DNA from: Clostridiales bacterium
GTDB lineage: Bacteria > Bacillota > Clostridia > Christensenellales > UBA1242
Length of the DNA: 43,018 nucleotides
Assembly: GCA_918241715.1 (NCBI GenBank)
Contig: CAKJYB010000014.1
Coordinates: 1 to 43,018 of the forward strand
Reading direction: 5' to 3'
Below are positions 918-26,033 of this stretch, piece by piece; the stretch's first letter is position 1, and each line of letters starts with the position of its first letter. Position numbers and translations under genes: made by a program. The notes under the pieces were generated by a model. It made no database searches, was not told where the DNA came from, and saw only the letters and a list, made by a program, of their open reading frames with translations.

Positions 918-1166
918 ATGCAATCAATCTATCTTGAAGACAGAAAAAAGCTTGTAATCACGGGCGCAACAAAAATAATCTCTTCAACAGAAACACAGGC
1001 TGTTGTAGAACTATCACAAGAAACTTTGATTGTTTCGGGAGCTGATTTGGAAATAACCAAACTCAACCTTGAAAACAACGAAGTAAGTTTTTCCGGAACT
1101 ATCAACAATATAAAGTTTTCTCAAAAAGCAGAAAAGAAGAGTCTTTTTAAAAGGATCTTCAAATGA
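918..1166 (+). CDS. yabP: Sporulation protein YabP
   Basis: 82 aa. The pattern LEDRKKLVITGATKI...LEITKLNLENNEVSFSGTI matches the YabP family as I recall it. SD AAAGGAG lies upstream. ATGA overlap with the next ORF, as in yabP-yabQ pairs. Confidence 0.75.
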   Translation: MQSIYLEDRKKLVITGATKIISSTETQAVVELSQETLIVSGADLEITKLNLENNEVSFSGTINNIKFSQKAEKKSLFKRIFK

Positions 1167-1516
1167 TATTGTATGAAACACAAACTCAGCCACAAGTCTC
1201 TTTGTTGTTTGTTCTTTTTGGCTTTTTGTGTGGCTTTGTTTTTGATTTAAAAAACATATTAACCATAAAAAATAAAGGCCCGTTTTTGTCCCATTTTTAC
1301 GAATTTGTGGCTTCTTTGTTTTTGTTTTTTACGTTTTATTTTTTAAATTTAAAAGCAAATTTTGGTTCCGTACGCAATTTTTCTTTTATCATGTTCTTTT
1401 TGTCGTTCTTTCTTCAGCGTTTTTTGATAACAAATTTTGTTGCAAAACCACTTTCAAAGTGCTACAATAAATTTAGGTCAAAAAGAGATGAAAAGAAAAT
1501 GGTGGAAAAATCTTAG
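1163..1516 (+). CDS. yabQ: YabQ-like small polytopic membrane protein (spore cortex biosynthesis family)
   Basis: 117 aa hydrophobic protein translationally coupled (ATGA) to yabP. The call rests on position and hydrophobicity, not on strong motifs. Confidence 0.5.
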   Translation: MILYETQTQPQVSLLFVLFGFLCGFVFDLKNILTIKNKGPFLSHFYEFVASLFLFFTFYFLNLKANFGSVRNFSFIMFFLSFFLQRFLITNFVAKPLSKCYNKFRSKRDEKKMVEKS

Positions 1517-1712
1517 TGCGTTTGAGCTTGTTGCTATTGTTTCAATAGTCTTTTTAACCATTGTGGTTGTAATCACAGCCATTGTTATTGCAAACAAAAA
1601 ACAAAAAATTGACGAAATGGAAGAAAAAAACAAAGAAGTTCAAATAGATTCTTCCCAAACATTTTCTCAGGAAGACAACTTCATATCTCAAATATATAAT
1701 CAGCTTCAATAA
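1488..1712 (+). CDS. Small bitopic membrane protein (occupies the divIC position after yabP-yabQ)
   Basis: Start set to the internal ATG (MKRKWWKNLS...). One TM helix followed by a charged helical tail (KKQKIDEMEEKNKE). Shorter than typical DivIC/FtsB. Assignment is positional only. Confidence 0.3.
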   Translation: MKRKWWKNLSAFELVAIVSIVFLTIVVVITAIVIANKKQKIDEMEEKNKEVQIDSSQTFSQEDNFISQIYNQLQ

Positions 1713-2405: not shown

Positions 2406-2430
2406 CAAAAAAAACACTTGCGTGGCTTTT
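2406..2430 (-). terminator. Weak candidate terminator after the 7-gene operon
   Basis: Minus strand reads GCCAC-GCAA-GTG followed by a T8 run. The stem is only 3-4 bp, so support is weak. Confidence 0.25.
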
Positions 2431-5400
2431 TTATTTTAATGTAGGAAGTTTTGTAAGGTCGTTTTCATCTATGTCCCAAATCTTATTGTCAAAACCAAAA
2501 ATCAGTTTGTATCCATTGATATTTTTTTCGCAAGTATTTACGCTTACATAACCGTTTGTGTTGTCTATTCCAATTACTTCAATATCTTTTGTCGTATAGC
2601 AATTAAGCACATTTCCACGGGTTTCTCCAACAACTCCAGCCACAACAAAACCTTCTGTATCAGAAATTGAAACGTCAGAATAACAATGATTTATTCTTTT
2701 TTTTATTTCGCCATTCAAATACTCTCCAAACAGCCCAGAAAGAACTCCTTTCGTTTGTTTTGAAGTTTCGTTTGTTATATTTCCTTTTGAATAGTTGTTT
2801 TCAGCCCCGACAAACGCTTGTCCAATCATGGCACCAACAATAACTTCGTCTGCCGAACCATCTAAATTGAAATTTACAACAGATTGATTTCTTTCAATCG
2901 AAATTGAATCTCCATTTTCGGCAATTCCAACAAGTCCACCCATAACCAAGCTTGCATTGTTTGAAATTGAAACAAAATTTGTGTTGTTTGTTATGTTTTT
3001 TTCGATTTTTGATTTTTCTAAAGCTACGGCCACAGCACCACCAAAAGTGGTCTTGTTTTTTGAAATGTTTAATCTAAAGTCTGCAGCGCCGACATTCTTA
3101 ATCATTTCTCCTTCGTTTTTAGAAACAAATCCACCAATCAGTGCGTTTTGGTCGGTATTTATCTCAATATTTCCAGAAATGCTGCAATTTTCAATTCTTC
3201 CGGTGTTGTAAAGGGCAATTCCACCAAACATTTTTACGTTGTTGTACGTTGCGTCTTCCAAAAGAATGATAAGGTTTCTTATTATTCCTGAATTTGTTTT
3301 CAATAAAGAATATTCTCCCTTGTCTCCAACAAGTTTAACCCCAACAAGACAATGTCCGTTTCCGTTTAATGTTCCACCAAAATTGCTTAGTTTCCACTTT
3401 TTCCCTTCAAGGTCAATATCTTCTTCCAAAACAATCTCATAATAGTTTGAATTTTTCATGTAAGTCTGAAGATCTTTTGCTGAAGCAACCCCTATTTTTG
3501 TTTTAAGAAAATAGAAATCAACAACAAACATTGCCAAATTTACAACAGAAAGACACATCAAAACTATGCATGCGGCTTTCCATTTTCTTGTCATTTTTTT
3601 CTTTAAAACACAATACAAAATCAGGCTTATGATTCCAACCATAATGTTGTAGAGAAGAACGCCTAAAACAACTCTGTCAGAAAAATATTTCAAAACTAGT
3701 TTTGCGTTGACGCTGATAAACGTCAAAAAGACAATTCCCATCACACTTGGAACGATTTCCAAAAGCCAAAACAAAAGAGATCTCCAAAATCTCCAATGGC
3801 TTCTTTTTTCCATTCTGTCAATATATGTTTTTTCTTCTCTTTTCTTTTTTATTCTTCTGTCAACAGTGTCGCCCGAAACACCTTTAAGTCCACCACTTTT
3901 TTCCGTCAAAGCAATAACGCTTATTGAAGACTCCAAAGACAAGTCCAAAAGTTCAAGTCTTTCAAAAATCCTTACAAAAAGACTTTTATAGTCGTCAAAA
4001 GTTGAAATCGAATCTAAATTTTGAAGATAATTTTCAAAAGGTGCAAGTTGAAGTTTAAAGTAATTTATTCCCCTTAAATACGTCTTTTCGTCAGTTTTTT
4101 GCATATCAAGCAAAATTCTGTTGTTTCGATTTAAAAAGTCTGTAAGTTTTGTTTTGAGTTCCTTTTTGTCAATGGTCTCTGGTCTGATAGACACTTTTTC
4201 GCCAGAATAAAGGTGCGCTTTGCTTATGATAGCCGCATATTTTTCTGTCTGCTCTTCATTTGCAAGGTTTAAAAGCGTTCCCCATTCTGCCATTTGGGCA
4301 ACATCGACATTTGATGCAATAAGTTCGGCATCAGATTTACAATGAGCCTTTGCTTTGATAAGCATCCAATAAAGTTCGGCCTTTGCTTCCGTTTTTATTA
4401 TGGCAATTGAGATGTATTTTTCAGCAATTTTGAAAAATCCCATTTCTTCAAGTTTTTCAATGATAACTTTAAGAATTTCAACAAGTTTTTCTTTGTCTGT
4501 TATATAAGCCAGATAAAAATCAATTTGCTTTTGCACTTTTTCAGTGTCCATAAAGGCAAGTGGCAACGCCATGTTTACAACGGCATTTACAAACTGCACT
4601 CTTGTAGGTTCGTCCAAAAATTTTAAAGACTTTTCAACTTCTTCTCTGTCTCTATAGTTTAATTTGTCTTCATTTGTTTTGAAGTGGCTTAAAAGCATGG
4701 CAAAATTGCTTTGTTCATGCCCCATGTCAATCTCAAGAACTTTTTGATAGTATTCCTGATTTCCACTATACTGAGCAAGCATAAAATAGAATTCGGCAAA
4801 TCTGTCAACTTCGTCTTTTCTGAAACATCTTAAAACCTTGTCAATGAGTTCTTGGCTCTGTGTTTCTATTGCCTTGTCTTCGGCTTTTTTGATAAATTCG
4901 TCTCTCATAGGAGAAGTGTATTGAGCCAAATACAACAAAAACGCATTATAGTATTCTTCACTGTCAAGACTGATAATAAGTTTTTCCCAGTTGTCAATAA
5001 TCATTTCTGCCAAATCTTTTGAAGCGTATTTCAAAATCTTGTCAATTCTGTCTTTGTCAGAAAAGTTTCCAATGCTTTGGAAAAACTCTCCAGCAGTATG
5101 AACCTTTTTGTCGCACAACATATCTGCAAAGAGAAGTTCGGCGCTGTTTTCGTCTTTTGCAAGCTCTTCATTTATCACTTTTTTTGCTGTTTGAAAGTCA
5201 GAGTTTTTCAGACACAAGAAAATCCATCTAATTCTGTTTGCTTCACTAGTTTCCATGTTTTCAACTTCATAGTGCCCAAGCTCTACAGGATTTATGGCGT
5301 CGTCTATGTTGAAATATTCTTTCTTGTCTGGCGTAACTTTTTTGACATCAATTGTTTCAATCTTTGCCACTTCTTTTACGCCATCTTTGATTGTTTTGTC

Positions 5401-6246
5401 AACTTTTGATGTGATATCTTGCAAAAATGAAGTTGCGTTTAAATCAACAAAACTTTTGCAAAATTTCAAATCGTCTGGAAGATTGTTCTCCGTCAAATCG
5501 TTAAGCGCAATAATAAAACTTTTTGAATATTTTTTTCTTTGGTTTATGAAGTAAGAATATCTGTCAAAAACGTGCTTGTGTTCTGGATCAAAAAACTCTT
5601 TCTTGCTGTTTGAAATCAAAACAAGAGCATTTGACGTAGATAAAGCATGGAAAGTTGTCTCTTCTCTTTCTTTTACATCATTTACAAAATAGGTTTTATA
5701 TCCAAGGCTTTCAAGTTCGGCAATCGCCCTGTCAACCCTTTCGTCTTCGTTGTTTTTGCTGTATTCTGTTGCACACAAAACAACATCATATTTTTCTTTC
5801 TTGTCCAGATTTTTATAGTTTTCGCATATTTTTTCAATACGCTTTTCGATTTCGTTGTATTCAGCAAGAGTTTCTGGTGGAGAATTTTTCATTGCATACT
5901 GAAAGTCAGAATCGTCTTCCAGCGAACACACTTCGCCAAAAAATCTTGGATATTTTCTTGCTCCACGCTTGTTGTTGTAAACAATAATCTTATGTTTTGC
6001 CAGCGCCTTGCCAAAATGTGCTTCGTATGAAAGTGGATACAAAGTTAAAATTTTTTCAAACTCTTTTACTGCCGTTTCAAACTTGAAAGCACGGAGTTTT
6101 TCGTATGCTGCAACAATCAAAAAGTCTTCTTCTTTTGAAGATTGTTCGTCCACATAGAGAGTCCCACAAAACATGCATTTAACCATGTTTTGCCCAACAA
6201 CAGCATATCTCCTTCCACCACAATTTTTGCAAACGCGTTCTTTCAT
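2431..6246 (-). CDS. Multidomain membrane protein: N-terminal Zn-ribbon, TPR-like module, TIR-like flavodoxin-fold domain, long helical region, 3 TM helices, C-terminal GLUG-repeat domain
   Basis: 1271 aa. CKNCG...CMFCG at aa 6-28. YDVVLCAT...ALVLISNS beta-alpha-beta pattern at aa ~152-255. Three hydrophobic helices at aa ~820-913. Repeated GG(I/L/F)(A/V)..N.G.I.N motifs (FGGIALYNTGRIENC, IGGFVSKNEGEMIKN, MGGLVGIAENGDSI, VAGVVGETRGNVLNC) at aa ~955-1225 are typical of GLUG motif domains. Start is 2 nt after the upstream stop. Confidence 0.85.
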   Translation of the reverse strand: MKERVCKNCGGRRYAVVGQNMVKCMFCGTLYVDEQSSKEEDFLIVAAYEKLRAFKFETAVKEFEKILTLYPLSYEAHFGKALAKHKIIVYNNKRGARKYPRFFGEVCSLEDDSDFQYAMKNSPPETLAEYNEIEKRIEKICENYKNLDKKEKYDVVLCATEYSKNNEDERVDRAIAELESLGYKTYFVNDVKEREETTFHALSTSNALVLISNSKKEFFDPEHKHVFDRYSYFINQRKKYSKSFIIALNDLTENNLPDDLKFCKSFVDLNATSFLQDITSKVDKTIKDGVKEVAKIETIDVKKVTPDKKEYFNIDDAINPVELGHYEVENMETSEANRIRWIFLCLKNSDFQTAKKVINEELAKDENSAELLFADMLCDKKVHTAGEFFQSIGNFSDKDRIDKILKYASKDLAEMIIDNWEKLIISLDSEEYYNAFLLYLAQYTSPMRDEFIKKAEDKAIETQSQELIDKVLRCFRKDEVDRFAEFYFMLAQYSGNQEYYQKVLEIDMGHEQSNFAMLLSHFKTNEDKLNYRDREEVEKSLKFLDEPTRVQFVNAVVNMALPLAFMDTEKVQKQIDFYLAYITDKEKLVEILKVIIEKLEEMGFFKIAEKYISIAIIKTEAKAELYWMLIKAKAHCKSDAELIASNVDVAQMAEWGTLLNLANEEQTEKYAAIISKAHLYSGEKVSIRPETIDKKELKTKLTDFLNRNNRILLDMQKTDEKTYLRGINYFKLQLAPFENYLQNLDSISTFDDYKSLFVRIFERLELLDLSLESSISVIALTEKSGGLKGVSGDTVDRRIKKKREEKTYIDRMEKRSHWRFWRSLLFWLLEIVPSVMGIVFLTFISVNAKLVLKYFSDRVVLGVLLYNIMVGIISLILYCVLKKKMTRKWKAACIVLMCLSVVNLAMFVVDFYFLKTKIGVASAKDLQTYMKNSNYYEIVLEEDIDLEGKKWKLSNFGGTLNGNGHCLVGVKLVGDKGEYSLLKTNSGIIRNLIILLEDATYNNVKMFGGIALYNTGRIENCSISGNIEINTDQNALIGGFVSKNEGEMIKNVGAADFRLNISKNKTTFGGAVAVALEKSKIEKNITNNTNFVSISNNASLVMGGLVGIAENGDSISIERNQSVVNFNLDGSADEVIVGAMIGQAFVGAENNYSKGNITNETSKQTKGVLSGLFGEYLNGEIKKRINHCYSDVSISDTEGFVVAGVVGETRGNVLNCYTTKDIEVIGIDNTNGYVSVNTCEKNINGYKLIFGFDNKIWDIDENDLTKLPTLK

Positions 6247-6248
6247 TT

Positions 6249-7391
6249 CTATCCTTGTTTCTTTTTGTTTTGTTTTATTTGATTTCCAATTTCTTCGTTG
6301 TAAGCGTCAAAGCGTTCTATTTCTTTCTTTGTTACGCTTGGTGGCATAACAGCCAAAATATCGTCAAAATCTTTGTTTGTAACTTTTACAATTGTGTCTG
6401 TTGCAATTGCCTTTAAAAGTGGTTCGTCTTTTGCTCTATCGCAAAGTTCTTCAATGTCAGCACCACTATAATTTTCTGTTTTTTCAACCAAATCTTCAAT
6501 GCTAAAATCGTCTGCAACAGGAACACCTTTCATGTTTTTCCTAAGCATAAATTCTCTTGCAGGAGCATCTGGAAGTGGCAAATAAATTTTTTGAGAAAAT
6601 CTTCCAGAACGTGTTGCGGCAGAGTCAATATCCCAAGGTCTGTTTGTTGCTCCAAGAAGAAGCAAGTTTTGGTTTCTTCCAGCAAACCCGTCTATCTGTT
6701 GCAAAAATTCGTTGACACGCTTGTCGTTGTGCGTGTCAACTCCACGTGCACTCAAAAGGTTGTCCATTTCGTCAATAAAAATGATTGCTCTGTCTTGCTT
6801 GTTTGCTTCTGTAAACAAAGCATTTATATTCTTTTCACTATCCCCAACCCATTTGCTTACAATGTCAGAGCCCTTGACAGCATAAAACTTTGCACCAACT
6901 TCATTTGCAATTGCCTTTGCTATCATGGTCTTTCCTGTGCCCGGTGGGCCATACAAAAGAACACCACCACCAGATTTTTTGTTGTAAACTTTGTATTTGT
7001 CAGGATATTTGATTGGATTGATCATTCTGATTGTGATGGCTTTTTTGACGTCATCAAGTCCAGCAACATCAGCAAAGGTGATGTTTGGCACTTCTGCTGC
7101 TTGCCACTTTTTGAGATCTTCATCTTCTTCCTGATTTGCAGTTGTAGGTTTGTCTGTTTTTACTGGCTTTTTGTCAAGGTTTTCGGTCAATCTGACAAGT
7201 CTTCTTGCCCTTTCCATTCTTGCTTCTTTAAGTTTTCCGGTGCTCTGTTTTGCCATGAGCATCATTGTTTCACTTGCAAGAAGAAAATTTCTCCTTGCTA
7301 AAGCAGAATTACCCTTTTCTTGCGCCTGTTTTGCTTTTGCCATATAAAGGTCAAAAGTTTCGGACAAAACTGAAATACTTGGTTCTTTCAC
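6249..7391 (-). CDS. Vps4-like AAA+ ATPase with N-terminal MIT-like three-helix region
   Basis: 380 aa, GTG start. Walker A GPPGTGKT (6927..6950), Walker B IIFIDEMD. Pore-loop and flanking signature SKWVGDSEK resembles Vps4 SKWMGESEK. ATNRPWDIDSA...GRFSQKIYLPLPD and C-terminal DFDDIL..PPSV...ERF..Y..E.G resemble Vps4 and the meiotic-clade AAA proteins. The N-terminal 75 aa are helical and MIT-like. Confidence 0.8.
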   Translation of the reverse strand: MKEPSISVLSETFDLYMAKAKQAQEKGNSALARRNFLLASETMMLMAKQSTGKLKEARMERARRLVRLTENLDKKPVKTDKPTTANQEEDEDLKKWQAAEVPNITFADVAGLDDVKKAITIRMINPIKYPDKYKVYNKKSGGGVLLYGPPGTGKTMIAKAIANEVGAKFYAVKGSDIVSKWVGDSEKNINALFTEANKQDRAIIFIDEMDNLLSARGVDTHNDKRVNEFLQQIDGFAGRNQNLLLLGATNRPWDIDSAATRSGRFSQKIYLPLPDAPAREFMLRKNMKGVPVADDFSIEDLVEKTENYSGADIEELCDRAKDEPLLKAIATDTIVKVTNKDFDDILAVMPPSVTKKEIERFDAYNEEIGNQIKQNKKKQG

Positions 7392-7405
7392 TTATCTTCT
7401 CTCTT

Positions 7406-7999
7406 TTATTTTGCTTCTGATTCGATTTTCTTTTTCAATTCGTCAATTTCTTTTTCGATGTTTTCGTCTGAAAGTCCGTCCAAACTTGCTTGTTCTTCAA
7501 TAAACTTTTCAAACTCTTCGTCTGTCATCTTGCCGGTCTTGTCTTTTCCAGCATTATAGAATGTTTCTTGGCTCATTTCCATAAAGTTGTCAATTTGGTC
7601 TGTTTGTGTTTCTACGGCAGCCATTGCGTTTTCAAACTGAGCCTGAATTTTTGCAAACTCTTTTGCATCAGCAAGTTTTGTCATTTCTCTGCTTATATCA
7701 CTCATTCCCCTTAAGAATTCTGATGTCATCATTGTAACATCTCTCATTTGGGCTGTGATTTCAAAGTTTAAAAGCATTTCTTGTGCTCTTCTTTGTTGTT
7801 GAACGGTCATCTTATAACCACTGAGAGCAAGGTTGTATTGTGCTTCCAAATCTTTTTCTTTTGCTCTTTTGGCTGCATCAATAAACACCTGTTTTTGATC
7901 TTCCAAACGATTGATTTGTTTGTTCATTGTGTTGATTGTTCTTTTAATCAACATCTTCTTTTCCAATTCTTTTTGTTGTTTTGATTTAAAAAGTCCCAT
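7406..7999 (-). CDS. ESCRT-III superfamily (Snf7/CHMP/PspA-like) protein, paralogue 1
   Basis: 197 aa all-helical. N-terminus MGLFKSKQQKE resembles CHMP3/PspA N-terminal amphipathic motifs. Basic N-terminal half and acidic C-terminal half. Segment MRDVTMMTSEFLRGMSDISREMTKL...FAKIQAQFENAM parallels CHMP alpha3-alpha4 regions. SD GGAGG lies 9 nt upstream, inside the preceding gene end. Confidence 0.65.
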   Translation of the reverse strand: MGLFKSKQQKELEKKMLIKRTINTMNKQINRLEDQKQVFIDAAKRAKEKDLEAQYNLALSGYKMTVQQQRRAQEMLLNFEITAQMRDVTMMTSEFLRGMSDISREMTKLADAKEFAKIQAQFENAMAAVETQTDQIDNFMEMSQETFYNAGKDKTGKMTDEEFEKFIEEQASLDGLSDENIEKEIDELKKKIESEAK

Positions 8000-8003
8000 T
8001 TTT

Positions 8004-8618
8004 TTATTCCTCCATCTTCATTTTTTTCTTTTTTGGTGCTTCTTTTTCTGCCTCTTCAACACCTATATCGTTTTCGTCTGCAAGTTGGTTTTCTTTTTCA
8101 AACATCAAAAGCACATCTTCTTCTGTCTTCCCAACTCCATAAATTGGTTCGCTTACGTCATAAGCAGCTCTAACTTCGTTGAAAAGTTCGTCAGCATTTG
8201 TAAGCACATCTTCACTTGAAATTCTGGTTTCAAGAGCTTTGTTTAGAAATCTTGCCAAACCTTTTTGGTCTTTCAAAAGGTTGCTAAGTGGAACCTTTGT
8301 TTGCGTCTTGAAAAATGTGTTGCTGTCAAACGCATCTTTAAGTTTGTTCATAAGACGAATGTTGTAAAGCAAATACATTCCCCTTTCCATTGACGTTTGC
8401 TTTTCTTCATTTAAGTTTGCAATCTTTTTTGCATACAAAAGTTGAAGATCTTTGTTTCTCTCTTTCTTTCCCTTTTCCATAAGAGCATCAATTTCTTTTA
8501 TCTTTTGGTAAATCTCTGCTTCTATTGTTCTTTCTTGCCTTTCAAGTTCGCAAATAGAGTTTACCAAATCTTCTCTCTTAAGTCTTTTGTATTTGTTTCT
8601 TCTAAATGGCCACCACAT
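8004..8618 (-). CDS. ESCRT-III superfamily-like coiled-coil protein, paralogue 2
   Basis: Start set to ATG 8618 (MWWPFRRNKYK...) because SD AAGGAG lies 6 nt upstream. The TTG at 8636 in the ORF track is less likely. Basic aromatic N-terminus, long helical hairpin-like heptads, acidic C-terminal tail (EEDVLLMFEKENQLADENDIGVEEAEKE). Confidence 0.55.
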   Translation of the reverse strand: MWWPFRRNKYKRLKREDLVNSICELERQERTIEAEIYQKIKEIDALMEKGKKERNKDLQLLYAKKIANLNEEKQTSMERGMYLLYNIRLMNKLKDAFDSNTFFKTQTKVPLSNLLKDQKGLARFLNKALETRISSEDVLTNADELFNEVRAAYDVSEPIYGVGKTEEDVLLMFEKENQLADENDIGVEEAEKEAPKKKKMKMEE

Positions 8619-8629
8619 AATTTTCTCCT

Positions 8630-8992
8630 TTAACAATTTTCTCCTTGATTTACTGCATAGATGCGTTCAAGAAGTTCGTCATAATATTTTTTTTGCGTTT
8701 CTCCAGCAAACTCCATGGCATGTTGGTATTCATTCAAAAACACCACTTCTTTATACCTGATTGGGTTTGAATACAATTCACTTTCACTTCTTATCTGACA
8801 CTTCTCAAGCATCAATCCCCAATAGGCATCTGCACACTTGCTGTCATATTGCAACGCAAGCATAAAATTCAACTTTGCTTGTTCAAACAACTCTTCACTC
8901 AAATTTATATAACCAAGTTTAAGTTCCTTGATAACTTTCGTCCTTTCTTCTTCGTTTAAATCTTCGGACGCACAATAGACTCTCCCGTTCAC
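8630..8992 (-). CDS. Small TPR-like helical protein, paralogous to aa ~40-140 of the 1271-aa protein
   Basis: 120 aa, GTG start in a GTGA overlap with the upstream stop. Shares the pattern A(Y/H)(W/F)G..L.K..I ... (Y/F)Q(H/Y)AM(E/K)....T...Y.E...RI with the N-terminal module of ORF 2431..6246. Confidence 0.6.
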   Translation of the reverse strand: MNGRVYCASEDLNEEERTKVIKELKLGYINLSEELFEQAKLNFMLALQYDSKCADAYWGLMLEKCQIRSESELYSNPIRYKEVVFLNEYQHAMEFAGETQKKYYDELLERIYAVNQGENC

Positions 8993-9399
8993 TCTTCTAT
9001 CTCTTCCTTCTTTCTTTGCACGATATATGCTTCTACTTCTTCCAAAAGCCTAAGGCAAGTTTCTTGTGTGTTGTCTTTTGCTGTTGCAATTTTCAAGTCG
9101 TCAAGTCTTGCTGCAAGTTTTGTGTCAACTTCTTGTGCTCTTGAATTTGTTGTTGGATTGAAAAACTTTATGTTGTCTTTTACTTCAACAAGTCTGTTGC
9201 AAAGTTCGTCATTTCCGTTTGCGTAAACCAAAATGCTTTCTACATTTGCAACCATGTTTTCAATTGTCTTTTTGTTTTTTAAAACTCCACGACTTCCAAC
9301 ATCTTCGCCTTTTGCATGCTTTGGTCTATATTCTCTGTAAATGAAATAAACCGAAACGCCAAGTATTGCAAGTCCTACAAACAAATAAAAAATCCACAT
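8989..9399 (-). CDS. Bitopic membrane protein with cytoplasmic helical domain (unknown family)
   Basis: 136 aa. N-terminal TM helix MWIFYLFVGLAILGVSVYFIY, then a charged helical region. SD AAGGAG lies 8 nt upstream and overlaps the upstream stop. Confidence 0.6.
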   Translation of the reverse strand: MWIFYLFVGLAILGVSVYFIYREYRPKHAKGEDVGSRGVLKNKKTIENMVANVESILVYANGNDELCNRLVEVKDNIKFFNPTTNSRAQEVDTKLAARLDDLKIATAKDNTQETCLRLLEEVEAYIVQRKKEEIEE

Positions 9400-9411
9400 A
9401 ATAATTTCTCC

Positions 9412-10254
9412 TTACAATTTTGCTCCACAATTTAAGCAAAATTTTGATTCTTCAGAATTTTCCGTTCCACATTCTTTGCAAATGTTTTTCCTAGAAACTT
9501 TTGCTCCACAATTGTCGCAGAATCTTGAAGTTGGTTTTAAAACGTTTCCACATTCTCTGCACACAAATTGTTCTTCTTTTGTCTCTGTTTGTGCTATGTT
9601 TTTCTTCGCCTTTGAAAGTCTTGTAAAGTCGTTTTCGTCAATCACAACATTTGCAATATTGAAAGTGTAAACTGCAATTCCATAATCTCCCATAAGTCTT
9701 TGATTTATCTTGCTCAAAACTTTTGCAGAAATTTCTCTTTTCTTTGTTGTAAGTTGGTTGAACGGAATTTTGTTTTCCTGCGCATATTCAACAACTTCAT
9801 TTTCCAAAACAGAAACGACATTTATCACAAGTCTTGATTGGAGATCTTCGCTGGTCATGTTTTCGTTTGCACCAACAAGATACAAATAGCACTTTCTTGG
9901 GTCTCCAATTTGAACATCAAAGTTTCCACTCATTCCAACTTTATAGTTGTCGTCAAGTGTTGGGTCATAGACCATAAACATTTGAGATGTCCCCCAAAGA
10001 AGTTTAAGTTTTGCCGTCTTTGACATAAAAAGCACTTCAAGTTTTACGTCAAGCTCTGTCCTAAGGTCAACAAACCTGCTTATCAAATATCTTCCTGAAG
10101 AAAGCGTTTGAAGCATTTGCCCATCTTTAACAAGAATTGCGTTGTGCGTTTCTGGCACAATAAGCGTCAATTTTGGACTGATTGGATTTTCAAGTTTTCT
10201 TCTTGTAAAAAGCTGGTCGTTGTTCCCTTCAAATGTGATTACGTTTTGTTCCAT
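9412..10254 (-). CDS. SPFH/band-7-like protein of the YdjI type with two C-terminal Zn-ribbons
   Basis: 280 aa. N-terminal region (LTLIVPETHNAILVKDGQMLQTLSSGRYLI) resembles the YdjI-like stomatin/prohibitin-related family that carries C-terminal Zn-ribbons. C-terminus has CRECG...FCDNCG and CKECG...FCLNCG. Confidence 0.65.
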   Translation of the reverse strand: MEQNVITFEGNNDQLFTRRKLENPISPKLTLIVPETHNAILVKDGQMLQTLSSGRYLISRFVDLRTELDVKLEVLFMSKTAKLKLLWGTSQMFMVYDPTLDDNYKVGMSGNFDVQIGDPRKCYLYLVGANENMTSEDLQSRLVINVVSVLENEVVEYAQENKIPFNQLTTKKREISAKVLSKINQRLMGDYGIAVYTFNIANVVIDENDFTRLSKAKKNIAQTETKEEQFVCRECGNVLKPTSRFCDNCGAKVSRKNICKECGTENSEESKFCLNCGAKL

Positions 10255-10296
10255 TTGGCCAATAATATCTTTAAAAAGATATTCTCCTTCATAATG

Positions 10297-10326
10297 ATAT
10301 TAGCACACTCACTTTTCAAAAGTCAA
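10297..10326 (-). promoter_or_regulatory. Candidate sigma-A promoter of the 7-gene operon
   Basis: Minus strand: -35 TTGACT (10321..10326), 18-nt spacer ending in TGC, -10 TAATAT (10297..10302). Confidence 0.4.
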
Positions 10327-10459: not shown

Positions 10460-10651
10460 ATGAACTTTTTTGGAGGCTCAACTTTCGGAGAAATGGGCAA
10501 AGAAAATGGTGGAACAAACTGCTGCAGTTTAATTTTCTTGCTTCTTCTTTTGAAAAATTGTGGTTGTGGTTTTATGAAAGGTGGAATCAATGTAGATTGC
10601 TCAACAATCATGCTTTTGCTCTTACTTTCAAATTGTGGCTGCAACAACTAA
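10460..10651 (+). CDS. Cys-rich hydrophobic 63-aa peptide with internal duplication
   Basis: Strong SD AGGAGG upstream of the ATG and a rho-independent terminator directly downstream. Two repeats: CCSLIFLLLLLKNCGCG and DCSTIMLLLLLSNCGCNN. Confidence 0.6.
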   Translation: MNFFGGSTFGEMGKENGGTNCCSLIFLLLLLKNCGCGFMKGGINVDCSTIMLLLLLSNCGCNN

Positions 10652-10665
10652 GTCAAAAAAACAAT

Positions 10666-10696
10666 CAAAAAGCCTGCCAGACGGCAGGTTTTTTTG
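10666..10696 (+). terminator. Rho-independent terminator
   Basis: CCTGCC-AGAC-GGCAGG hairpin (10673..10688) followed by a T7 run. Confidence 0.8.
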
Positions 10697-11273: not shown

Positions 11274-11350
11274 GGGGGTGTGGCTCAGTTGGCTAGAGCA
11301 CCTGCCCTGCAAGCAGGGGGTCACCGGTTCGAATCCGGTCATCTCCACCA
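11274..11350 (+). tRNA. tRNA-Ala (anticodon UGC), CCA encoded
   Basis: Cloverleaf folded by hand: acceptor GGGGGTG/CATCTCC with a G3:U70 pair and A73. D stem GCTC/GAGC. Anticodon stem CCTGC/GCAGG with loop CCTGCAA. T arm ACCGG-TTCGAAT-CCGGT. 3' CCA present. Confidence 0.85.
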
Positions 11351-11394: not shown

Positions 11395-11423
11395 TTGACA
11401 GACAATCTGCTCCATGATATAAT
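11395..11423 (+). promoter_or_regulatory. Consensus sigma-A promoter of the double-HEPN gene
   Basis: -35 TTGACA (11395..11400), exactly 17 nt spacer ending TGA, -10 TATAAT (11418..11423). SD AGGAG at 11432..11436. Confidence 0.65.
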
Positions 11424-11442: not shown

Positions 11443-12672
11443 ATGGCAAACAACATAAACGCAACAACCAGAATATTGCCAGAAGCGAGAGCTTTTATTG
11501 TTGGACATTTTATGCCCAACGAAAACCCTGTTGAAAAACATTGTTCAAACGATATGCCTTTACATTCTGCAATGTTGTGCCTTTATTCTGCCATGCTTTT
11601 GCTTCAAGTGCAAGAGATTTTTCCACAAGTACACGAATACTTTTCTGGCAGAAAAAACAAGGAATTTGATTGCAACCAAAGGGCAAGACAAATACGTTCT
11701 GACATATATAGAAAAAACCAAAATCTCAGCCAGCAAGAAATTGACCAATTGGCAGAAAAACAACTTGAAACAGAAATCAGAAATGCCTTTTCTCACGGGT
11801 GCTTTAAGTTTTCGTTTGACTCAAAATCTCAACCTGTTGTAGTCCTTTCAACAAACTATGCTGGAGCAAACCAAAATGCCTCAATCACAATTTCTTTTAA
11901 AGAGATTTTTACAACTCTTGGTGGACACATAAAACTGCAAGAATACAAAGTAAAAAAGATGTTAAAAGATTTAAACGAAAGCCTTGATTTACAGCATCTT
12001 GACAAGCAAACTTTTGCAAACTTAATCAAAGACGAAAGTCTTGATCAACAAAAAATTGAAGAAATAAAAAACTGCATTTTCAGAAATATTGCTCTTCCAA
12101 AAATGCTTCAACACATGACAAACTATTTTGTAAACAGAGACTATCAAATCCCAGAAGAAATTGACAAAAAGATAAGAAACCCTATTTATTCGACCTGTTT
12201 GGAAATCATCTTTATGACTTCGCTTATAGCATACAATCAAAATGAAGCCTACCAGACACTTTCTCCAGACTCTTTGCTCTTCAAAAAAATATCCATTCTC
12301 AGAAATTCTCTTATGCACGGACTGACAAACTTTTCAGATGGTGGCTTGAAAGTGTCCATATCTCATGGCAAACCAAAGTATGCTGGGATTTTGGACGAAG
12401 AGTTTGACTCTGTTCTTCTTGGAATGAAAATGGAGATGTGGAGTGCAGAAACCGAAATTGCAAAGATTGACAAAGCACTCAACTTTGACGACCTAAGTGA
12501 AGAAGAACAATACTATATGAAAGAAATTTTAAGGTCTTCTGGAATAACAAAAGAAAACTCCGAAGACTTGAAAGAAATAAAAGAATCTTTCCTTGAACAA
12601 ATGGGTAAAATTTATGAAGAGACCGAAAAAATCATAAACGAAAAAGCCGACCCAGATGGAGATGGAAAATAA
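11443..12672 (+). CDS. Protein with two HEPN-type RNxxxH motifs (predicted RNase, unknown family)
   Basis: 409 aa. RNAFSHG at aa 113-119 (11779..11799) and RNSLMHG at aa 287-293 (12301..12321). Each sits late in a ~150-aa helical segment, as in HEPN domains. Confidence 0.6.
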   Translation: MANNINATTRILPEARAFIVGHFMPNENPVEKHCSNDMPLHSAMLCLYSAMLLLQVQEIFPQVHEYFSGRKNKEFDCNQRARQIRSDIYRKNQNLSQQEIDQLAEKQLETEIRNAFSHGCFKFSFDSKSQPVVVLSTNYAGANQNASITISFKEIFTTLGGHIKLQEYKVKKMLKDLNESLDLQHLDKQTFANLIKDESLDQQKIEEIKNCIFRNIALPKMLQHMTNYFVNRDYQIPEEIDKKIRNPIYSTCLEIIFMTSLIAYNQNEAYQTLSPDSLLFKKISILRNSLMHGLTNFSDGGLKVSISHGKPKYAGILDEEFDSVLLGMKMEMWSAETEIAKIDKALNFDDLSEEEQYYMKEILRSSGITKENSEDLKEIKESFLEQMGKIYEETEKIINEKADPDGDGK

Positions 12673-14153: not shown

Positions 14154-15251
14154 TTATTTCTTTATCTTTTCCCATGGAAATTCTTTTCTTCCAAAATGTC
14201 CAAAGCATGCCGTCTGTTTGTAAATTGGTTTCAAAAGCCCAAGTTCCTTGATTATGTTGTCTGGAGAAAAATCAAAATTTTCTGAAACATATTTGTCAAT
14301 TTCTTTCATTGGCTTTTTGTTTGTTCCAAAACATTCGACATACATGGAAACAGGGTCTTCCATGCCGATTGCATAACTCACTTGAATTTCGCACTTGTCA
14401 GCAAATCCGTGTGCAACAATATTTTTTGCAACATATCTTGCATAGTAAGCTGCGCTTCTGTCAACTTTTGTTGCATTTTTGCTTGAAAAACATCCACCAC
14501 CAACTCTGCCAACTCCACCATAGGTGTCAACAACAATCTTTCTTCCAACGCAACCACTATCTCCAAAACTGCCCCAGATTGTAAACTTTCCACTTGGGTT
14601 GATTATGTATTTTGTGTCTTTTGTGATGTAGTTTTTATATTCTTTCAAAACTGGCATCACAACATCTTCTTTGATTGTTTTTTGAATCTGTGCAAGTGTA
14701 AGTTTTGAGTCATGAGAAACGCTGATTAAAATCGTGTCAAAGCTTGTTGGTTTTTCGTCTTCATACACAACAGAGACTTGCCCCTTTGCGTCTGCAAAAT
14801 AAAGTTTGTGCTTTCTTCTGAAATCGTCATAACATTTCATAAGCTTGTGTGCAACCAAAATTGGAAGTGGCATAAACTCTTCTGTTTCATTTGTTGCATA
14901 ACCAAACACCATGCCTTGATCATTTGCACAAAGTTTTTGTTTTACAACTGCCTGATTGATGTCTGGGCTTTGTTCGCTGATTTCCTTTACAATGGAAAAT
15001 TCGTTTTTATACCCAACTTCTTTAAGCACTTTTCTTGCAATTTTGTCATAGTCAATTTTGGCCTTTGTTGTCGCTTCCCCATAAATGAAAAGTTTGTCAT
15101 TTTTTATTGCGCACTCAACTGCCATTTGGCTGTTTTTGTCTTGCTTTAGCGCTTCGTCCAAAATTGCGTCTGCAATAGTGTCGCAAGTTTTGTCTGGGTG
15201 GCCAATGTTTACGCTTTCACTTGTGATAATTTTTCTTTCTTTTGTCTTCAT
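14154..15251 (-). CDS. metK: S-adenosylmethionine synthetase
   Basis: SESVNIGHPDKTCD, GDSGCVGRKIVVDTYGG and FSSKNATKVDRSAAY match MetK signatures. SD AGGAGAG upstream. Lies downstream of a SAM riboswitch. Confidence 0.9.
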   Translation of the reverse strand: MKTKERKIITSESVNIGHPDKTCDTIADAILDEALKQDKNSQMAVECAIKNDKLFIYGEATTKAKIDYDKIARKVLKEVGYKNEFSIVKEISEQSPDINQAVVKQKLCANDQGMVFGYATNETEEFMPLPILVAHKLMKCYDDFRRKHKLYFADAKGQVSVVYEDEKPTSFDTILISVSHDSKLTLAQIQKTIKEDVVMPVLKEYKNYITKDTKYIINPSGKFTIWGSFGDSGCVGRKIVVDTYGGVGRVGGGCFSSKNATKVDRSAAYYARYVAKNIVAHGFADKCEIQVSYAIGMEDPVSMYVECFGTNKKPMKEIDKYVSENFDFSPDNIIKELGLLKPIYKQTACFGHFGRKEFPWEKIKK

Positions 15252-15495: not shown

Positions 15496-15620
15496 AAAAA
15501 ACCCATCGTCTGATGGGTTTAAAAGATCTTTTATCCCATCGCTCAGCCTTTAGCACCTTGCAAATGCAGGTTGCTGTGTGGTCATCGGGGCTGTCCCTGG
15601 CACACTCTTTATGGTTCTGC
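15496..15620 (-). promoter_or_regulatory. SAM-I (S-box) clan riboswitch with intrinsic terminator
   Basis: Minus strand: CCATAAAGAGTGTGCCAGGGACAGCCCCGATGACCACACAGCAACCTGCATTTGCAAGGTGCTAAAGGCTGAGCGATGG contains the conserved S-box elements AAGAG, AGGGA, GATGA (kink-turn), GCAACC and GGTGCTAAA. Terminator AAACCCATC-AGAC-GATGGGTTT plus T run at 15496..15520. GATGGG occurs in both the P1 3' strand and the terminator 3' arm, giving the antiterminator alternative. Confidence 0.75.
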
Positions 15621-23796: not shown

Positions 23797-23873
23797 TGGT
23801 GCTTTCGGCAGGATTTGAACCCGCAACTTCTTGGTTCGAAGCCAAGCACTCTATCCAGTTGAGTTACGAAAGC
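23797..23873 (-). tRNA. tRNA-Arg (anticodon UCG), CCA encoded
   Basis: Minus strand cloverleaf: acceptor GCTTTCG/CGAAAGC. Anticodon stem CTTGG/CCAAG with loop CTTCGAA. T arm GCGGG-TTCAAAT-CCTGC. A73 and CCA present. Confidence 0.85.
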
Positions 23874-24023: not shown

Positions 24024-26033
24024 ATGGCAAAAAGCAAAGCAAAATCTTTTATCTTACGTCTAATTATTCTTGCCGTTGTAGGCTACGTTGTCGGAGCTGC
24101 CCTTGCTTACTTTGTTGACAATGAAGTAAAAGGTGATATTGTAAAATGTCTTACAATTGACTGGGCATACTTCGGTGCTGCTGCAGGTGCAGGACTTGCT
24201 CTTCTTTCTCTTTTCTTTAAAAAACCAAAGAAGAAAATGGGTGCAGAAACAACAGGTAAAACTTCTTCCGGTGAAGAAATGGATTTGTCCTACGATGCAA
24301 AATGGTTGCTCCCAGAAGACATTAAAGACCAATTTGGTTTGATTGCAACCACATGGTCCGGGCTTCCTTCTCTTAAAAACACTGGTATTGTGTTTAGAAG
24401 TTGCATGGAAGGTGGAAAATACCATATCGCAATGAAAGACGAATATCACTGCTTGGTTATTGGTACCACCGGTTCTGGTAAAACAAGTATCGTGTTTGTT
24501 CCAACAATCAGAATTTATGCACACTCTGGAGAAAAACCATGTATGGTTATCTCAGACCCTAAGGGCGAACTTTACACAAAGACAAGCAGAATTTTGGAAG
24601 ACGAAGGATACAGAGTTATAAAATTTGACTTGCGTGATCCATTCTCTTCAACAAGATGGAACCCTATGGAACACGCCTTTGAACTTTATCACAAAGGTAA
24701 AAACTGCAAACACAACGTAAAACGTTGCACAAACGGAGCAAGACCAGAAAGCGTTGGATACAAAACAATTCCTGGTGAAAGATATGGCGAAGAATGGTTT
24801 GGTTTTGAAGGCGTTGCTTACCCAACAGAAGACGCTGTAAGAGTTGCCGTTCTAAGTCAAGAACAAATCTATTGCGACTTGGCACAAAGCGAACTTAAAG
24901 AAATCTGCAACACGGTTGCACCAAAAACAAAAGGCTCCAACGACCCAACATGGGAAGAAGGTGCACAAGACTTCCTTTATGGTTGTGCCCTTGCCATGCT
25001 TGAAGATAGTATGGACCCAGAACTTGGAATGACAAAAGATAAATTCAACTTCTACAACCTTTACAAAATTGCAACATTCCGTGATCCAGATGCTGACGCA
25101 CCATTTGAAACGGTCAGAAAATATCTTCTTCAAGGACGTGACGAAGCAACAAGTGTTGTTCCAAACCTTACATCAGCTGTTATTAACAACGCACCAAATA
25201 CAACAAAATCATATATCGGTGTTTTGAATGGTAAAATTTCTTTCATGAATGATATTGGTATTTCTTACCTTACTTCAGAAAGCGACATAAACTTTGACAC
25301 CTTCACCGACAAACCTACAGCAATTTACCTTGTTATTCCAGATGATAGAGAAGAACGTTATACCCTTGCAACATTGTGCATCTCTCAACTTTACAAACGT
25401 CTTGTTGACAAAGCAAACTCTTATCATGGTGGAAAACTTCCAAAGCACGTTTACTTCATTTTGGACGAATTCGGAAACATGCCACCAATTCCAAAATTTG
25501 ACAGCATGATTACCGTTTCCCGTGGTAGAAACATTTTATATGAAGCCGTTGTTCAGTCTTACACGCAGATTGAAACAAAATATGGCGCAGATGCTGCAAA
25601 AACCATTATCGGAAACTTCAACTCTCAAATTTATCTTGGAACAGACGACCAAAAGACAAGAGACGACTTCTCCAAGATGTGTGGTGAAGTTCAGTTGATT
25701 CACGAAGAAAAGAGCACGTCCAAAAACGAAAAGGACGACAAAGACTCCAAGACAACAAACACAAGCGTTCAAAGAACAACCCGTGCCCTTATCACTTCTT
25801 ACGAACTTGGACAAATTCCATTCGGTACAATGGTTGTAAAACTCTTCAGATACAACCCAATGAAACTTAAAGGAACAAGAAATGACCAAGTTCCATTCTT
25901 CTATAAGAAAGAAGCAGAACAAACGATTGGCGCAATGAAGAGCCTTGATACAGCAAAGGTTTACTATGATATCAAAATGAGAAATAAAAAGGTTATAAAG
26001 CCTTCTTCTTCAGGGTTTGGAAGTTTCTTCTAG
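24024..26033 (+). CDS. VirD4/TraG-family type IV coupling protein-like ATPase
   Basis: 669 aa. Two N-terminal TM helices, Walker A GTTGSGKT, VISDPKGELY, Walker B-region YFILDEFGNMPPIP and SRGRNILYEAVVQSYTQIETKYG, all typical of T4CP (TraG/TraD/VirD4) proteins. SD AAGGAG upstream. Confidence 0.75.
   Translation: MAKSKAKSFILRLIILAVVGYVVGAALAYFVDNEVKGDIVKCLTIDWAYFGAAAGAGLALLSLFFKKPKKKMGAETTGKTSSGEEMDLSYDAKWLLPEDIKDQFGLIATTWSGLPSLKNTGIVFRSCMEGGKYHIAMKDEYHCLVIGTTGSGKTSIVFVPTIRIYAHSGEKPCMVISDPKGELYTKTSRILEDEGYRVIKFDLRDPFSSTRWNPMEHAFELYHKGKNCKHNVKRCTNGARPESVGYKTIPGERYGEEWFGFEGVAYPTEDAVRVAVLSQEQIYCDLAQSELKEICNTVAPKTKGSNDPTWEEGAQDFLYGCALAMLEDSMDPELGMTKDKFNFYNLYKIATFRDPDADAPFETVRKYLLQGRDEATSVVPNLTSAVINNAPNTTKSYIGVLNGKISFMNDIGISYLTSESDINFDTFTDKPTAIYLVIPDDREERYTLATLCISQLYKRLVDKANSYHGGKLPKHVYFILDEFGNMPPIPKFDSMITVSRGRNILYEAVVQSYTQIETKYGADAAKTIIGNFNSQIYLGTDDQKTRDDFSKMCGEVQLIHEEKSTSKNEKDDKDSKTTNTSVQRTTRALITSYELGQIPFGTMVVKLFRYNPMKLKGTRNDQVPFFYKKEAEQTIGAMKSLDTAKVYYDIKMRNKKVIKPSSSGFGSFF

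Follow-up and report, generated by a model that had tools for sequence, protein, structure and literature searches.

By analyzing a 43,018-nt stretch of DNA from a Clostridiales bacterium (contig CAKJYB010000014.1 of assembly GCA_918241715.1; this whole stretch is called the window below), with a low GC content of about 35%, we found a block of seven minus-strand open reading frames (ORFs) between positions 2431 and 10254. [quoted passage not shown] In our view the operon likely encodes a bacterial equivalent of the ESCRT-III/Vps4 machine by which archaea and eukaryotes remodel membranes, linked here to a scaffold of SPFH type and to a sensor that spans the membrane. The tight packing of the ORFs had been described in an earlier note made from the letters alone, and re-reading gave the same coordinates and the same junctions, namely 12, -4 (a GTGA overlap), 11, 4, 14 and 2 nt from gene 1 to gene 7.

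The signals around these junctions agree with the earlier description in part. Shine-Dalgarno (SD) sequences were said to lie inside the preceding gene ends, and purine-rich SD-like stretches are indeed found there, but some of them straddle the ends. One upstream promoter and no internal terminators had also been proposed. A promoter-like site with nine out of 12 consensus matches and an extended -10 TG precedes gene 1, and a terminator scan found no minus-strand terminator-like site inside the block. However, the consensus scan also found promoter-like matches inside the block, e.g. at 7581-7553 (10/12), and the region holds 37 such matches compared to 25.6 +/- 4.5 in shuffled sequences, a modest excess. 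Since internal matches exist and the total exceeds the shuffles only modestly, a single promoter is not demonstrable. After the gene 7 stop follows a short hairpin, which fell short of the terminator-scan criteria and is, as read from the letters, a possible weak terminator.

Table 1. Features of the seven-gene block and median identities of its seven proteins in related loci
Feature	Position	Strand	Basis	Median identity, 55 genus-level loci	Median identity, 28 distant loci
Gene 1, 280 amino acids (aa), SPFH protein with two C-terminal zinc ribbons, YdjI/COG4260-type	9412-10254	-	Pfam	56%	35%
Gene 2, 136 aa, one N-terminal membrane helix (residues 1-22), helical cytoplasmic part	8989-9399	-	hydropathy	68%	28% (detected in 7/28)
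Gene 3, 120 aa, soluble helical protein, 'AYWGL' TPR-like hairpin	8630-8992	-	sequence	52%	not detected
Gene 4, 204 aa, divergent ESCRT-III-like (likely)	8004-8618	-	AlphaFold2, Foldseek, hhalign, position	78%	50%
Gene 5, 197 aa, Snf7-family ESCRT-III	7406-7999	-	family profile, Pfam of relatives, AlphaFold2, Foldseek	84%	60%
Gene 5, C-terminal helix with MIM1-like motif (E..IEKEIDELKKKI)	7412..7468	-	relaxed MIM1 pattern		
Gene 6, 380 aa, MIT-like domain, single classic-clade AAA and C-terminal helix	6249-7391	-	Pfam, NCBIfam, alignment	76%	64%
Gene 6, MIT-like three-helix N-domain, residues 8-72	7176..7370	-	profile and alignment		
Gene 7, 1271 aa, membrane giant	2431-6246	-	hydropathy, homologue search	42%	not detected at >60% coverage
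Gene 7, zinc ribbon (6-29), TPR-like hairpin and TIR-homologous domain (about 153-270)	5437..6231	-	colinear with TIR_2 proteins		
Promoter-like site some 40 nt upstream of gene 1 (TTGACT, spacer of 18 nt, TG, TAATAT)	10297..10326	-	predicted		
Short hairpin CAC-GCAA-GTG and T8 after the gene 7 stop	2407..2426	-	read from sequence		

An exhaustive profile search for the gene 5 family gave 354 clusters at 50% identity, and 86 full-length members were analyzed. The Pfam Snf7 model (PF03357) matches 15 of these 86 relatives (best E=1.4e-9), two of them at or above its 27.3-bit cut-off. Searched against the PDB, the family profile matches CHMP2A at E=6.1e-6 over profile positions 8-143, i.e. the whole core, and more weakly CHMP1B (0.005) and CHMP3 (0.025), followed by Vps24 and CdvB. 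In the AlphaFold2 model (predicted local distance difference test, pLDDT, 86.9) helices at residues 7-48, 52-106, 112-152, 160-175 and 178-196 form a long hairpin, a third long helix and two short C-terminal helices, which is the five-helix ESCRT-III layout. [quoted passage not shown] The N-terminus MGLFKSK is conserved, and we take it to resemble the MGLFGK type of eukaryotic ESCRT-III. At the other end the family tail reads 'sDeEIdkLI' and then 'D..I(D/E)KEL.ELKKKI', and a relaxed pattern for the MIT-interacting motif (MIM) of type MIM1 is present within the final 35 residues in 21 of the 86 members, compared to a mean of 0.6 and a maximum of three in 200 shuffles of the tails, a 35-fold enrichment. 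None of 31 gene 4 family members has this pattern.

By these criteria of sequence and modelled fold, gene 5 is a genuine Snf7-family ESCRT-III protein, and its reading as ESCRT-III-like in the earlier note is thereby upheld. A PspA-type polymer was rejected, as PspA_IM30 (PF04012) gave no match in gene 4, gene 5, the 86 gene 5 relatives or 23 relatives of gene 4. Generic coiled coils were rejected as well, on account of the full-length colinear matches to CHMP2A and Snf7 and the conserved N- and C-terminal motifs.

Gene 6 carries one Pfam AAA domain (E=1.1e-41) plus AAA_lid_3, while the Vps4_C model reaches 20.3 bits with the full protein and 22.4 bits with the C-terminal fragment, at a cut-off of 21.3; a helix similar to the C-terminal one is also present in p97 D2. 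The NCBIfam model of CdvC is covered from position 6 to 367 out of 370, at 209 bits (cut-off 650). The protein is soluble, having no membrane helix, and contains neither a protease domain nor a Cdc48 N-domain. Its N-terminal 75 residues are conserved and line up with the MIT domains of Vps4 in a multiple alignment. In the PDB, the N-domain profile matches 2MPK best, a MIT domain from chitin synthase (E=0.35), and Pfam MIT recognizes two out of 13 orthologues (0.005) and the homologue in the distant locus L084 (0.0014), below the 30-bit cut-off. Against reference sequences entered by hand, hhalign gave P=1.8e-4 for the CdvC MIT domain and a weak P=0.042 for that of human VPS4B. In the ATPase core, pore loop 1 reads SKWVGDSEK, compared to SKW(M/L)GESEK in Vps4 and TMWFGESEA in p97 D2, and an NRPW motif matches the NIPW of Vps4. 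Identity on 221 shared columns is 43% to yeast Vps4 and 41% to p97 D2. The ranking of PDB entries is uninformative for the placement, since two-domain p97 entries fill the top 60. A neighbour-joining tree of the 221 columns, with a very small taxon sample and two reference sequences entered by hand, united the Snf7-linked bacterial AAAs in one clade with 100% bootstrap. ESCRT-III genes adjoin gene 6 not only in the window but also in 80+ related loci, and six distant loci show the arrangement as well. Judged from its predicted domains it has Vps4 architecture, and it most likely works like Vps4; we stop short of assigning it to the Vps4 clade itself.

The second ESCRT-III candidate, gene 4, starts at the ATG that gives MWWPF..., as in its orthologues, and not at an upstream TTG (8636). 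This N-terminal motif is followed by a helical hairpin (residues 15-52 and 56-98, i.e. 38 and 43 residues) and shorter helices, with no MIM. Neither Pfam, NCBIfam nor the PDB gives a sequence match for gene 4 or its relatives, and among 23 members of its family Pfam gave no Snf7 match, just as it gave none to PspA. Aligned by hhalign, the gene 4 and gene 5 families are colinear over 163 columns (probability 9%, P=0.0036). For the AlphaFold2 model (pLDDT 72.5), the top five Foldseek matches are all filament chains of archaeal CdvB2 (probability 0.54-0.99, template modelling scores 0.31-0.47, E 0.1-0.3), and CdvB, Asgard ESCRT-IIIB, Vipp1, CHMP2A and Ist1 appear lower in the list. There is also a resemblance to a Thermococcus protein of MGLL type, Tp_201 (201 aa), with 38% identity over 53 aa and a pairwise E of 1e-4. 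Position points the same way: in L091, a distant locus, the place of gene 4 before the gene 5 homologue is taken by an evident paralogue of gene 5, and both L087 and L092 have a protein of about 200 residues there, the one in L087 with a similar basic-aromatic N-terminus. Gene 4, whose family seems restricted to this lineage, is therefore likely a second, divergent ESCRT-III protein, as far as modelled fold and position can tell. The earlier claim of two ESCRT-III-like proteins thus holds by profile for gene 5, and for gene 4 by fold ranking and position only, with no sequence-profile link. As a separate observation, the 201-aa protein of L092 (8381-8986) weakly matches the Vps37 family of ESCRT-I, Mod_r, at 17.7 bits compared to a cut-off of 30.1 (E=0.0036), which is probably coiled-coil noise.

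By scanning one genome per species with a 16-sequence alignment of close gene 5 relatives, we obtained 140 matches, of which the best 80 all come from metagenome-assembled genomes (MAGs) of Clostridia, labelled Caccovivens, Coproplasma, Christensenella or Christensenellaceae, or without a genus label. A relative at about 82% identity has the same seven genes in the same order. The flanks differ, with adh_short and ABC transporter genes in loci L001-L003 compared to tRNA-Ala, a small ORF and CvpA in the window. The seven proteins were then mapped onto 83 loci, 55 at genus level and 28 more distant (Table 1). Gene 1 heads the block in 76 of the 83, gene 2 is at 24-32% identity beyond the genus group, and gene 3 is detectable only within it. 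The 28 distant loci keep the order SPFH, gene 4, gene 5 and AAA; in these loci the giant is unrecognizable, or a large gene is inserted between gene 5 and the ATPase. Genes 4-6 are under unusually strong constraint, as their genus-level identities of 76-84% compare to 42% for the giant and to only 26-44% for the neighboring CvpA, where present. The giant is fast-evolving relative to genes 4-6. As the gene order recurs across the 83 loci while the flanks change, the block is a genetic unit; together with the junction gaps this bears out the earlier view of a single unit, and the neighborhood is conserved in relatives.

Gene 1 had been named a YdjI-type SPFH protein, and Pfam agrees: Band_7_1 covers residues 20-208 (E=7.8e-17, 62 bits; cut-off 24) and is followed by zinc ribbons at 230-252 and 259-280 (Zn_Ribbon_1 1.7e-14, 53.5 bits; DZR 2.6e-9, 37.5 bits). 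Gene 2 has no match in Pfam, NCBIfam or PADLOC, and the single sequence of gene 3 gave nothing useful in Pfam, NCBIfam or the PDB. The hairpin of gene 3 weakly resembles residues 45-137 of gene 7 (E=0.014) and the N-terminal module of TIR proteins (0.26). On these two values, we did not adopt the idea that gene 3 is a paralogue of the TPR module in the giant.

Hydropathy places three transmembrane helices of gene 7 at about residues 820-915, and from their position residues 1-815 are predicted to be cytoplasmic and 916-1271, with a GLUG-like region, to lie outside. Beyond its orthologues, the only relatives found in a homologue search are 'TIR domain-containing proteins' of Ruminococcus and Oscillospiraceae, among them P0480 (database E=2.4e-16, pairwise 4e-22). 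Like these Clostridia proteins (P0480-P0489), which consist of a zinc ribbon, TPR, TIR_2 and RCC1 or LRR, gene 7 is colinear over its first 290 residues, with zinc ribbon, TPR hairpin and TIR_2 aligned along residues 6-286; their TIR_2 domain (PF13676) lies at 158-282 (158-280 in P0480) and scores 41-46 bits. Unlike them, gene 7 carries a long helical region, the three transmembrane helices and a GLUG-like ectodomain instead of RCC1/LRR, and its catalytic WxxxE is replaced by (Y/H)KxxFDRY, as in all 16 orthologues examined. No direct Pfam TIR match is found for gene 7 itself, and BLAST against the TIR_2 proteins of the distant loci L084 and L088 stays at noise level (E=0.03 to 0.9). The TIR-like domain is probably a non-catalytic scaffold, to go by the replaced motif. 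GLUG (PF07581) is borderline, at 20.2 bits compared to a cut-off of 20.5, and six orthologues carry a precomputed PF07581 match; TPR_14 is likewise borderline, with a precomputed PF13428 match in some orthologues. Of the zinc-ribbon/TIR-like/GLUG giant described earlier, the zinc-ribbon, TPR and TIR_2 homology and the membrane anchoring consequently stand, while the GLUG part is borderline and the catalytic glutamate is lost.

Certain elements of the operon also recur far outside the lineage, as seen in the contexts of distant gene 5 relatives that we sampled (L084, L086-L089, L091 and L092). The whole six-part architecture is repeated in L092, a distant bacterial contig (GC 37%), with an SPFH protein with zinc ribbons, proteins of 104 and 201 aa, a Snf7-like protein, an MIT-like AAA and a 1090-aa giant, the latter with a bona fide TIR_2 domain, an intact WxxxE (WIYNEW) and C-terminal membrane helices. 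L087, from a Bacillota MAG, encodes an SPFH protein, proteins of 97 and 203 aa, a Snf7-like protein, an AAA and a trypsin-like protein, with an FHA-kinase and PP2C upstream. L088 (5382-14343) has a proteasome-family gene, a 72-aa ORF, Snf7-like and MIT-like AAA genes, a weak SPFH match, a CSD protein, TIR_2, two further genes and Macro; the contig is bacterial, as a GreA gene is present, and the locus looks like a conflict-system version of the module. Shorter variants are L091 (two Snf7-like genes and an AAA) and L084 (a TIR_2 protein, Snf7-like and MIT-like AAA). L089, without taxon label (GC 69%), has an ESCRT-III-like gene, a Vps4-type AAA that is 40% identical to Thermococcus Vps4, a Snf7-like gene and a second MIT-like gene. 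An MIT-like N-domain is common to the ATPases of all six distant loci. Owing to this recurrence, the pair of Snf7-like protein and MIT-like AAA is a recurrent bacterial module, and SPFH and TIR proteins are its frequent partners.

Another arrangement of the gene 5-type Snf7-like domain is its fusion either to FtsK/SpoIIIE ATPases or to a RuvB-like AAA with or without a NERD nuclease; such fusion proteins are P0178, P0179, P0184 and P0195 (L086) as well as P0183, P0190, P0200, P0256 and P0257. In L086, a Sel1+trypsin gene adjoins the FtsK/SpoIIIE fusion. Snf7 fusions to FtsK/SpoIIIE or to RuvB-like AAA/NERD were not encountered in the literature consulted.

Searching plasmids with gene 5 (tblastn) gave a single match, on a 49-kb plasmid of Thermococcus peptonophilus (NZ_CP014751.1, 17914-23455; L090). 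The matching 188-aa protein is 26% identical to gene 5 over 149 aa (database E 3e-8, pairwise 3e-15) and itself matches Pfam Snf7 at 4e-4. Its surroundings contain two 200-aa MGxL-type proteins, a Ser/Thr kinase, an MIT-AAA Vps4 and PP2C. This is a complete euryarchaeal ESCRT locus, whose three ESCRT-III-like genes are all annotated 'hypothetical protein' and whose Vps4 is annotated 'ATP-binding protein'. It corresponds to the 'Main' euryarchaeal ESCRT clade of Makarova et al. (2024, PMC10936438), with Vps4, ESCRT-III, Ser/Thr kinase and PP2C; their 'Meth_adaptin' clade includes a protein that joins SPFH, coiled coil and zinc ribbon, and another zinc-ribbon protein that is linked to the membrane. 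Our operon shares with the euryarchaeal loci several ESCRT-III paralogues beside an MIT-AAA ATPase, the similarity of gene 5 to the 188-aa protein and the weak similarity of gene 4 to the 201-aa protein. The SPFH partner with zinc ribbons recalls the Meth_adaptin loci, and the FHA-kinase and PP2C of bacterial L087 recall the 'Main' clade. It differs in its bacterial host, in the TIR-family membrane giant, in the Cdc48-type arginine-finger region and missing beta-domain of gene 6, and in that no winged-helix (ESCRT-II-like), adaptin-appendage or CdvA components were seen here.

The earlier note had instead described a hybrid with a PspA-operon-like context. In Bacillus subtilis pspA-ydjGHI, the partner of PspA is the SPFH + zinc-ribbon protein YdjI (PMC11237479; cited in PMC10936438). 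Both operons, in Firmicutes, place a Band_7_1 SPFH protein with C-terminal zinc ribbons beside an ESCRT-III superfamily protein and include a protein that has both a zinc ribbon and a membrane segment (YdjG in B. subtilis, gene 7 in the window). Unlike in the ydj operon, the polymer is here of Snf7 type with two paralogues, a dedicated MIT-AAA ATPase is present and the TPM-domain protein YdjH has no equivalent. The closest whole-system relatives are the euryarchaeal ESCRT loci and not the PspA operon.

Among bacteria, pairs of the form 'MIT+Vps4-AAA -> TPR+TM(s)', e.g. Opitutus ACB74714.1, in which snf7 is displaced or absent, have been described by Ravi et al. (2024, PMC11237479) in Cyanobacteria, Bacteroidetes, Verrucomicrobia, Nitrospirae as well as Planctomycetes, Firmicutes not included, as have membrane-anchored Snf7 or PspA with a double-AAA protein. 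Compared by gene order, gene 6 followed by the large TPR-containing membrane protein gene 7 resembles such a pair, except that here an SPFH gene and two ESCRT-III-like genes come before it. With eukaryotic ESCRT-III/Vps4 the operon shares CHMP2A as the best profile match of the gene 5 family, the MIM1-like C-terminal motif, and the SKW pore loop and C-terminal helix of gene 6. No ESCRT-0, -I or -II components are found here, the arginine-finger region differs, and the SPFH and TIR-like partners set it apart; having no beta-domain, gene 6 would also have no Vta1-binding site, unlike eukaryotic Vps4. A 2025 review states that a Vps4-like ATPase 'appears absent in bacteria' (PMC7619361), the placement of PspA/Vipp1 in the ESCRT-III superfamily left an equivalent ATPase open (Liu et al. 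2021, PMC8281802), and recent reviews assign the pairing of ESCRT-III and Vps4 only to archaea and eukaryotes. Full-text literature searches found no paper on a bacterial locus uniting Snf7-type proteins, an MIT-AAA, SPFH and a TIR-family protein.

What is established is that gene 5 is Snf7-like, that gene 6 is an MIT-like AAA and that the two are genetically coupled; from there on we infer the mechanism. The SPFH protein would mark or cage a membrane patch and recruit the polymer, as YdjI does for PspA in B. subtilis. Genes 4 and 5 may then insert their hydrophobic N-termini (MWWPF and MGLFKSK) and co-polymerize on the inner leaflet. The gene 6 hexamer would dock on the gene 5 tail via its MIT-like domain and thread subunits through the SKW pore, leading to turnover or constriction of the polymer. 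The giant could report the state of the envelope from outside and nucleate or anchor the assembly inside, with genes 2 and 3 as putative adaptors. The physiological output would most likely be the sealing or shedding of damaged membrane; as the giant is of TIR ancestry, a variant of this that phages or toxins trigger is conceivable.

Several results weigh against this ESCRT-type machine. As a single sequence, gene 5 has no match in Pfam, NCBIfam or the PDB, and no single-sequence match ties gene 4 or gene 5 to any family; the ESCRT-III assignment is transitive, because only family profiles matched. The Foldseek E-values of the two models lie at 0.1-1. Every MIT signal of gene 6 stays under the curated thresholds. 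In NCBIfam its highest score is for CDC48, 221 bits for the ATPase part only, compared to the 209 bits of CdvC, and the distant AAA family members rank CDC48 above PAN and PAN above CdvC. The arginine-finger region TRSGRF is of the Cdc48 type and not the RRRF of Vps4 (LRPGRF in L087 and L088, as LRPGRL in p97, and a short LS-RF form in L089 and Thermococcus Vps4), and the lid beta-domain, partial in L089 and Thermococcus, is absent from gene 6 as from L087 and L088. In the tree, the bacterial clade groups with Vps4 and not with p97 D2, but at a bootstrap of only 38%. The Vps4-like MIT-AAA of the earlier note accordingly stands as regards the MIT-like N-domain, the SKW pore loop and the C-terminal helix, but not as regards the arginine finger or a firm place in the phylogeny.

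Such Cdc48-like traits could, by analogy, speak for membrane-protein quality control, in which an SPFH cage would work with a Cdc48-like unfoldase and the helical proteins would be mere adaptors or substrates. In its AAA core, gene 6 is no more distant from p97/Cdc48 D2 than from Vps4 (202 bits compared to 184 bits, the yeast sequence being entered by hand). A partnership of SPFH and AAA proteins is established for HflK/C-FtsH. We nevertheless regard quality control as very improbable, as gene 6 has the MIT-like N-domain and none of the membrane helix, protease domain and Cdc48 N-domain noted above, gene 5 is specifically of the Snf7 family with a MIM-like tail, and the Snf7-like/AAA pairing persists without an SPFH gene in L089 and L091.

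A further point against the preferred reading is that the partners in distant relatives, i.e. TIR, Macro, trypsin-like and proteasome-like proteases, and the FtsK and NERD fusions, point to conflict systems more than to housekeeping repair. In an anti-phage or conflict system the TIR-family giant would act as sensor or as effector, with the AAA and the Snf7-like polymer as its regulated assembly platform or as an effector arm that disrupts or seals membranes. Such a system would overlap with membrane remodelling in mechanism and differ from it in purpose. The homology of the gene 7 N-terminal module to TIR_2 proteins, the WxxxE kept by the L092 giant, and the TIR_2 genes beside the Snf7-like/AAA pair of L084 and of L088, where Macro and proteasome-family genes are present too, fit this, as do the trypsin-like gene after the AAA in L087, the fusions of gene 5 family domains to FtsK-type ATPases or to RuvB-like AAA and NERD nuclease, and the much faster evolution of the giant than of the core. 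However, PADLOC 2.0 gave only generic AAA similarity to IetA (132 bits) and TRIP13 for the seven proteins, the NCBIfam IteA model reaches 112 bits at a cut-off of 510, and gene 5 has no homologue in 50,697 phage records. That a single lineage has the block in about 80 species-level genomes, and keeps genes 4-6 as conserved as described above, is unlike patchy, fast-turnover defence islands, the surroundings in the window are of housekeeping type, and the TIR-like domain is without its canonical catalytic glutamate in all orthologues. On balance we find a conflict system rather unlikely as the purpose of this operon.

The very high, lineage-wide conservation of genes 4-6 would also suit a specialized fission device for division or sporulation, like crenarchaeal Cdv, rather than one for stress or repair. 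The archaeal relatives of the module act in division (PMC10936438, PMC10017037), and yabP-, yabQ- and divIC-like ORFs, recognized by eye, lie just past the neighboring CvpA. This proposal is improbable in our judgement: because the flanks vary between loci, having sporulation genes close by is particular to the window, neither a CdvA-like gene nor a winged-helix domain was seen, and, provided that the host has FtsZ, the published view is that ESCRT-III works elsewhere where FtsZ is present (PMC7619361).

The membrane-remodelling ESCRT-type machine is thus the reading that we prefer. None of the outcomes named in the earlier note as speaking against it was found, these being generic coiled coils, an ordinary AAA clade with a non-MIT N-terminus, and an unconserved neighborhood. 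What the operon adds is an MIT-like AAA gene that directly follows the gene for a Snf7-type protein whose tail is MIM-like, lineage-wide in gut Clostridia and in scattered other bacteria. Provided that the coupling is real, it would offer a bacterial system for reconstituting ATP-driven ESCRT-III turnover, connect ESCRT function in prokaryotes with SPFH scaffolds and TIR domains, and help to judge if ESCRT-III and Vps4 were partners before archaea and bacteria split or if the partnership was transferred; as context for a transfer, gut Christensenellaceae live beside methanogens. A wider proposition, for which we see the balance as even, is that bacteria hold a genuine, vertically maintained ESCRT system of Snf7-type paralogues and an MIT-AAA motor, related to the euryarchaeal ESCRT loci and ancestrally wired to an SPFH scaffold and a TIR transmembrane sensor. 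If true, it would answer whether bacterial ESCRT-III has a Vps4-equivalent ATPase, and it would show that membrane repair of ESCRT type and immunity based on TIR have long been linked.

The operon is flanked in the window by a small Cys-rich ORF, tRNA-Ala and CvpA, and the wider neighbors are chromosomal genes of an ordinary kind (MscL, metK, nrdD/nrdG and those for thioredoxin reductase and glycyl-tRNA synthetase). Near-identical proteins carry names that point to Candidatus Caccovivens, a Clostridia genus known from gut MAGs. The Cys-rich ORF (63 aa, 10460-10651, plus strand), divergent from the operon promoter, has two internal repeats of the form C..(I/L)LLLLL.NCGC, a strong AGGAGG SD sequence and its own terminator-like site at 10667-10694, and it recurs at 67-76% identity in at least 18 related loci, mostly 1-4 kb upstream of the operon. 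The CvpA-like gene occupies 1706-2371 downstream of the operon, and just beyond it three small ORFs (918-1712, plus strand), YabP-, YabQ- and DivIC/FtsB-like by eye, suggest a spore-forming lineage. On the other side, tRNA-Ala (11274-11350) is followed by a 409-aa ORF (11443-12672, plus strand) with a perfect promoter consensus at 11395-11423, namely TTGACA, a 17 nt spacer and TATAAT, with TG.

Farther away, an ordinary S-adenosylmethionine riboswitch (15533-15617, minus strand, 48.6 bits) precedes the metK-like ORF at 14154-15251. A 669-aa ORF (24024-26033, plus strand), by eye a TraG/VirD4-type coupling protein with the Walker A motif GTTGSGKT, stands isolated beside tRNA-Arg (23797-23873, minus strand) and may be the remnant of a conjugative element. 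Lastly, a 3974-aa ORF (26096-38020, minus strand) with an N-terminal membrane or signal helix is presumably a giant surface protein.

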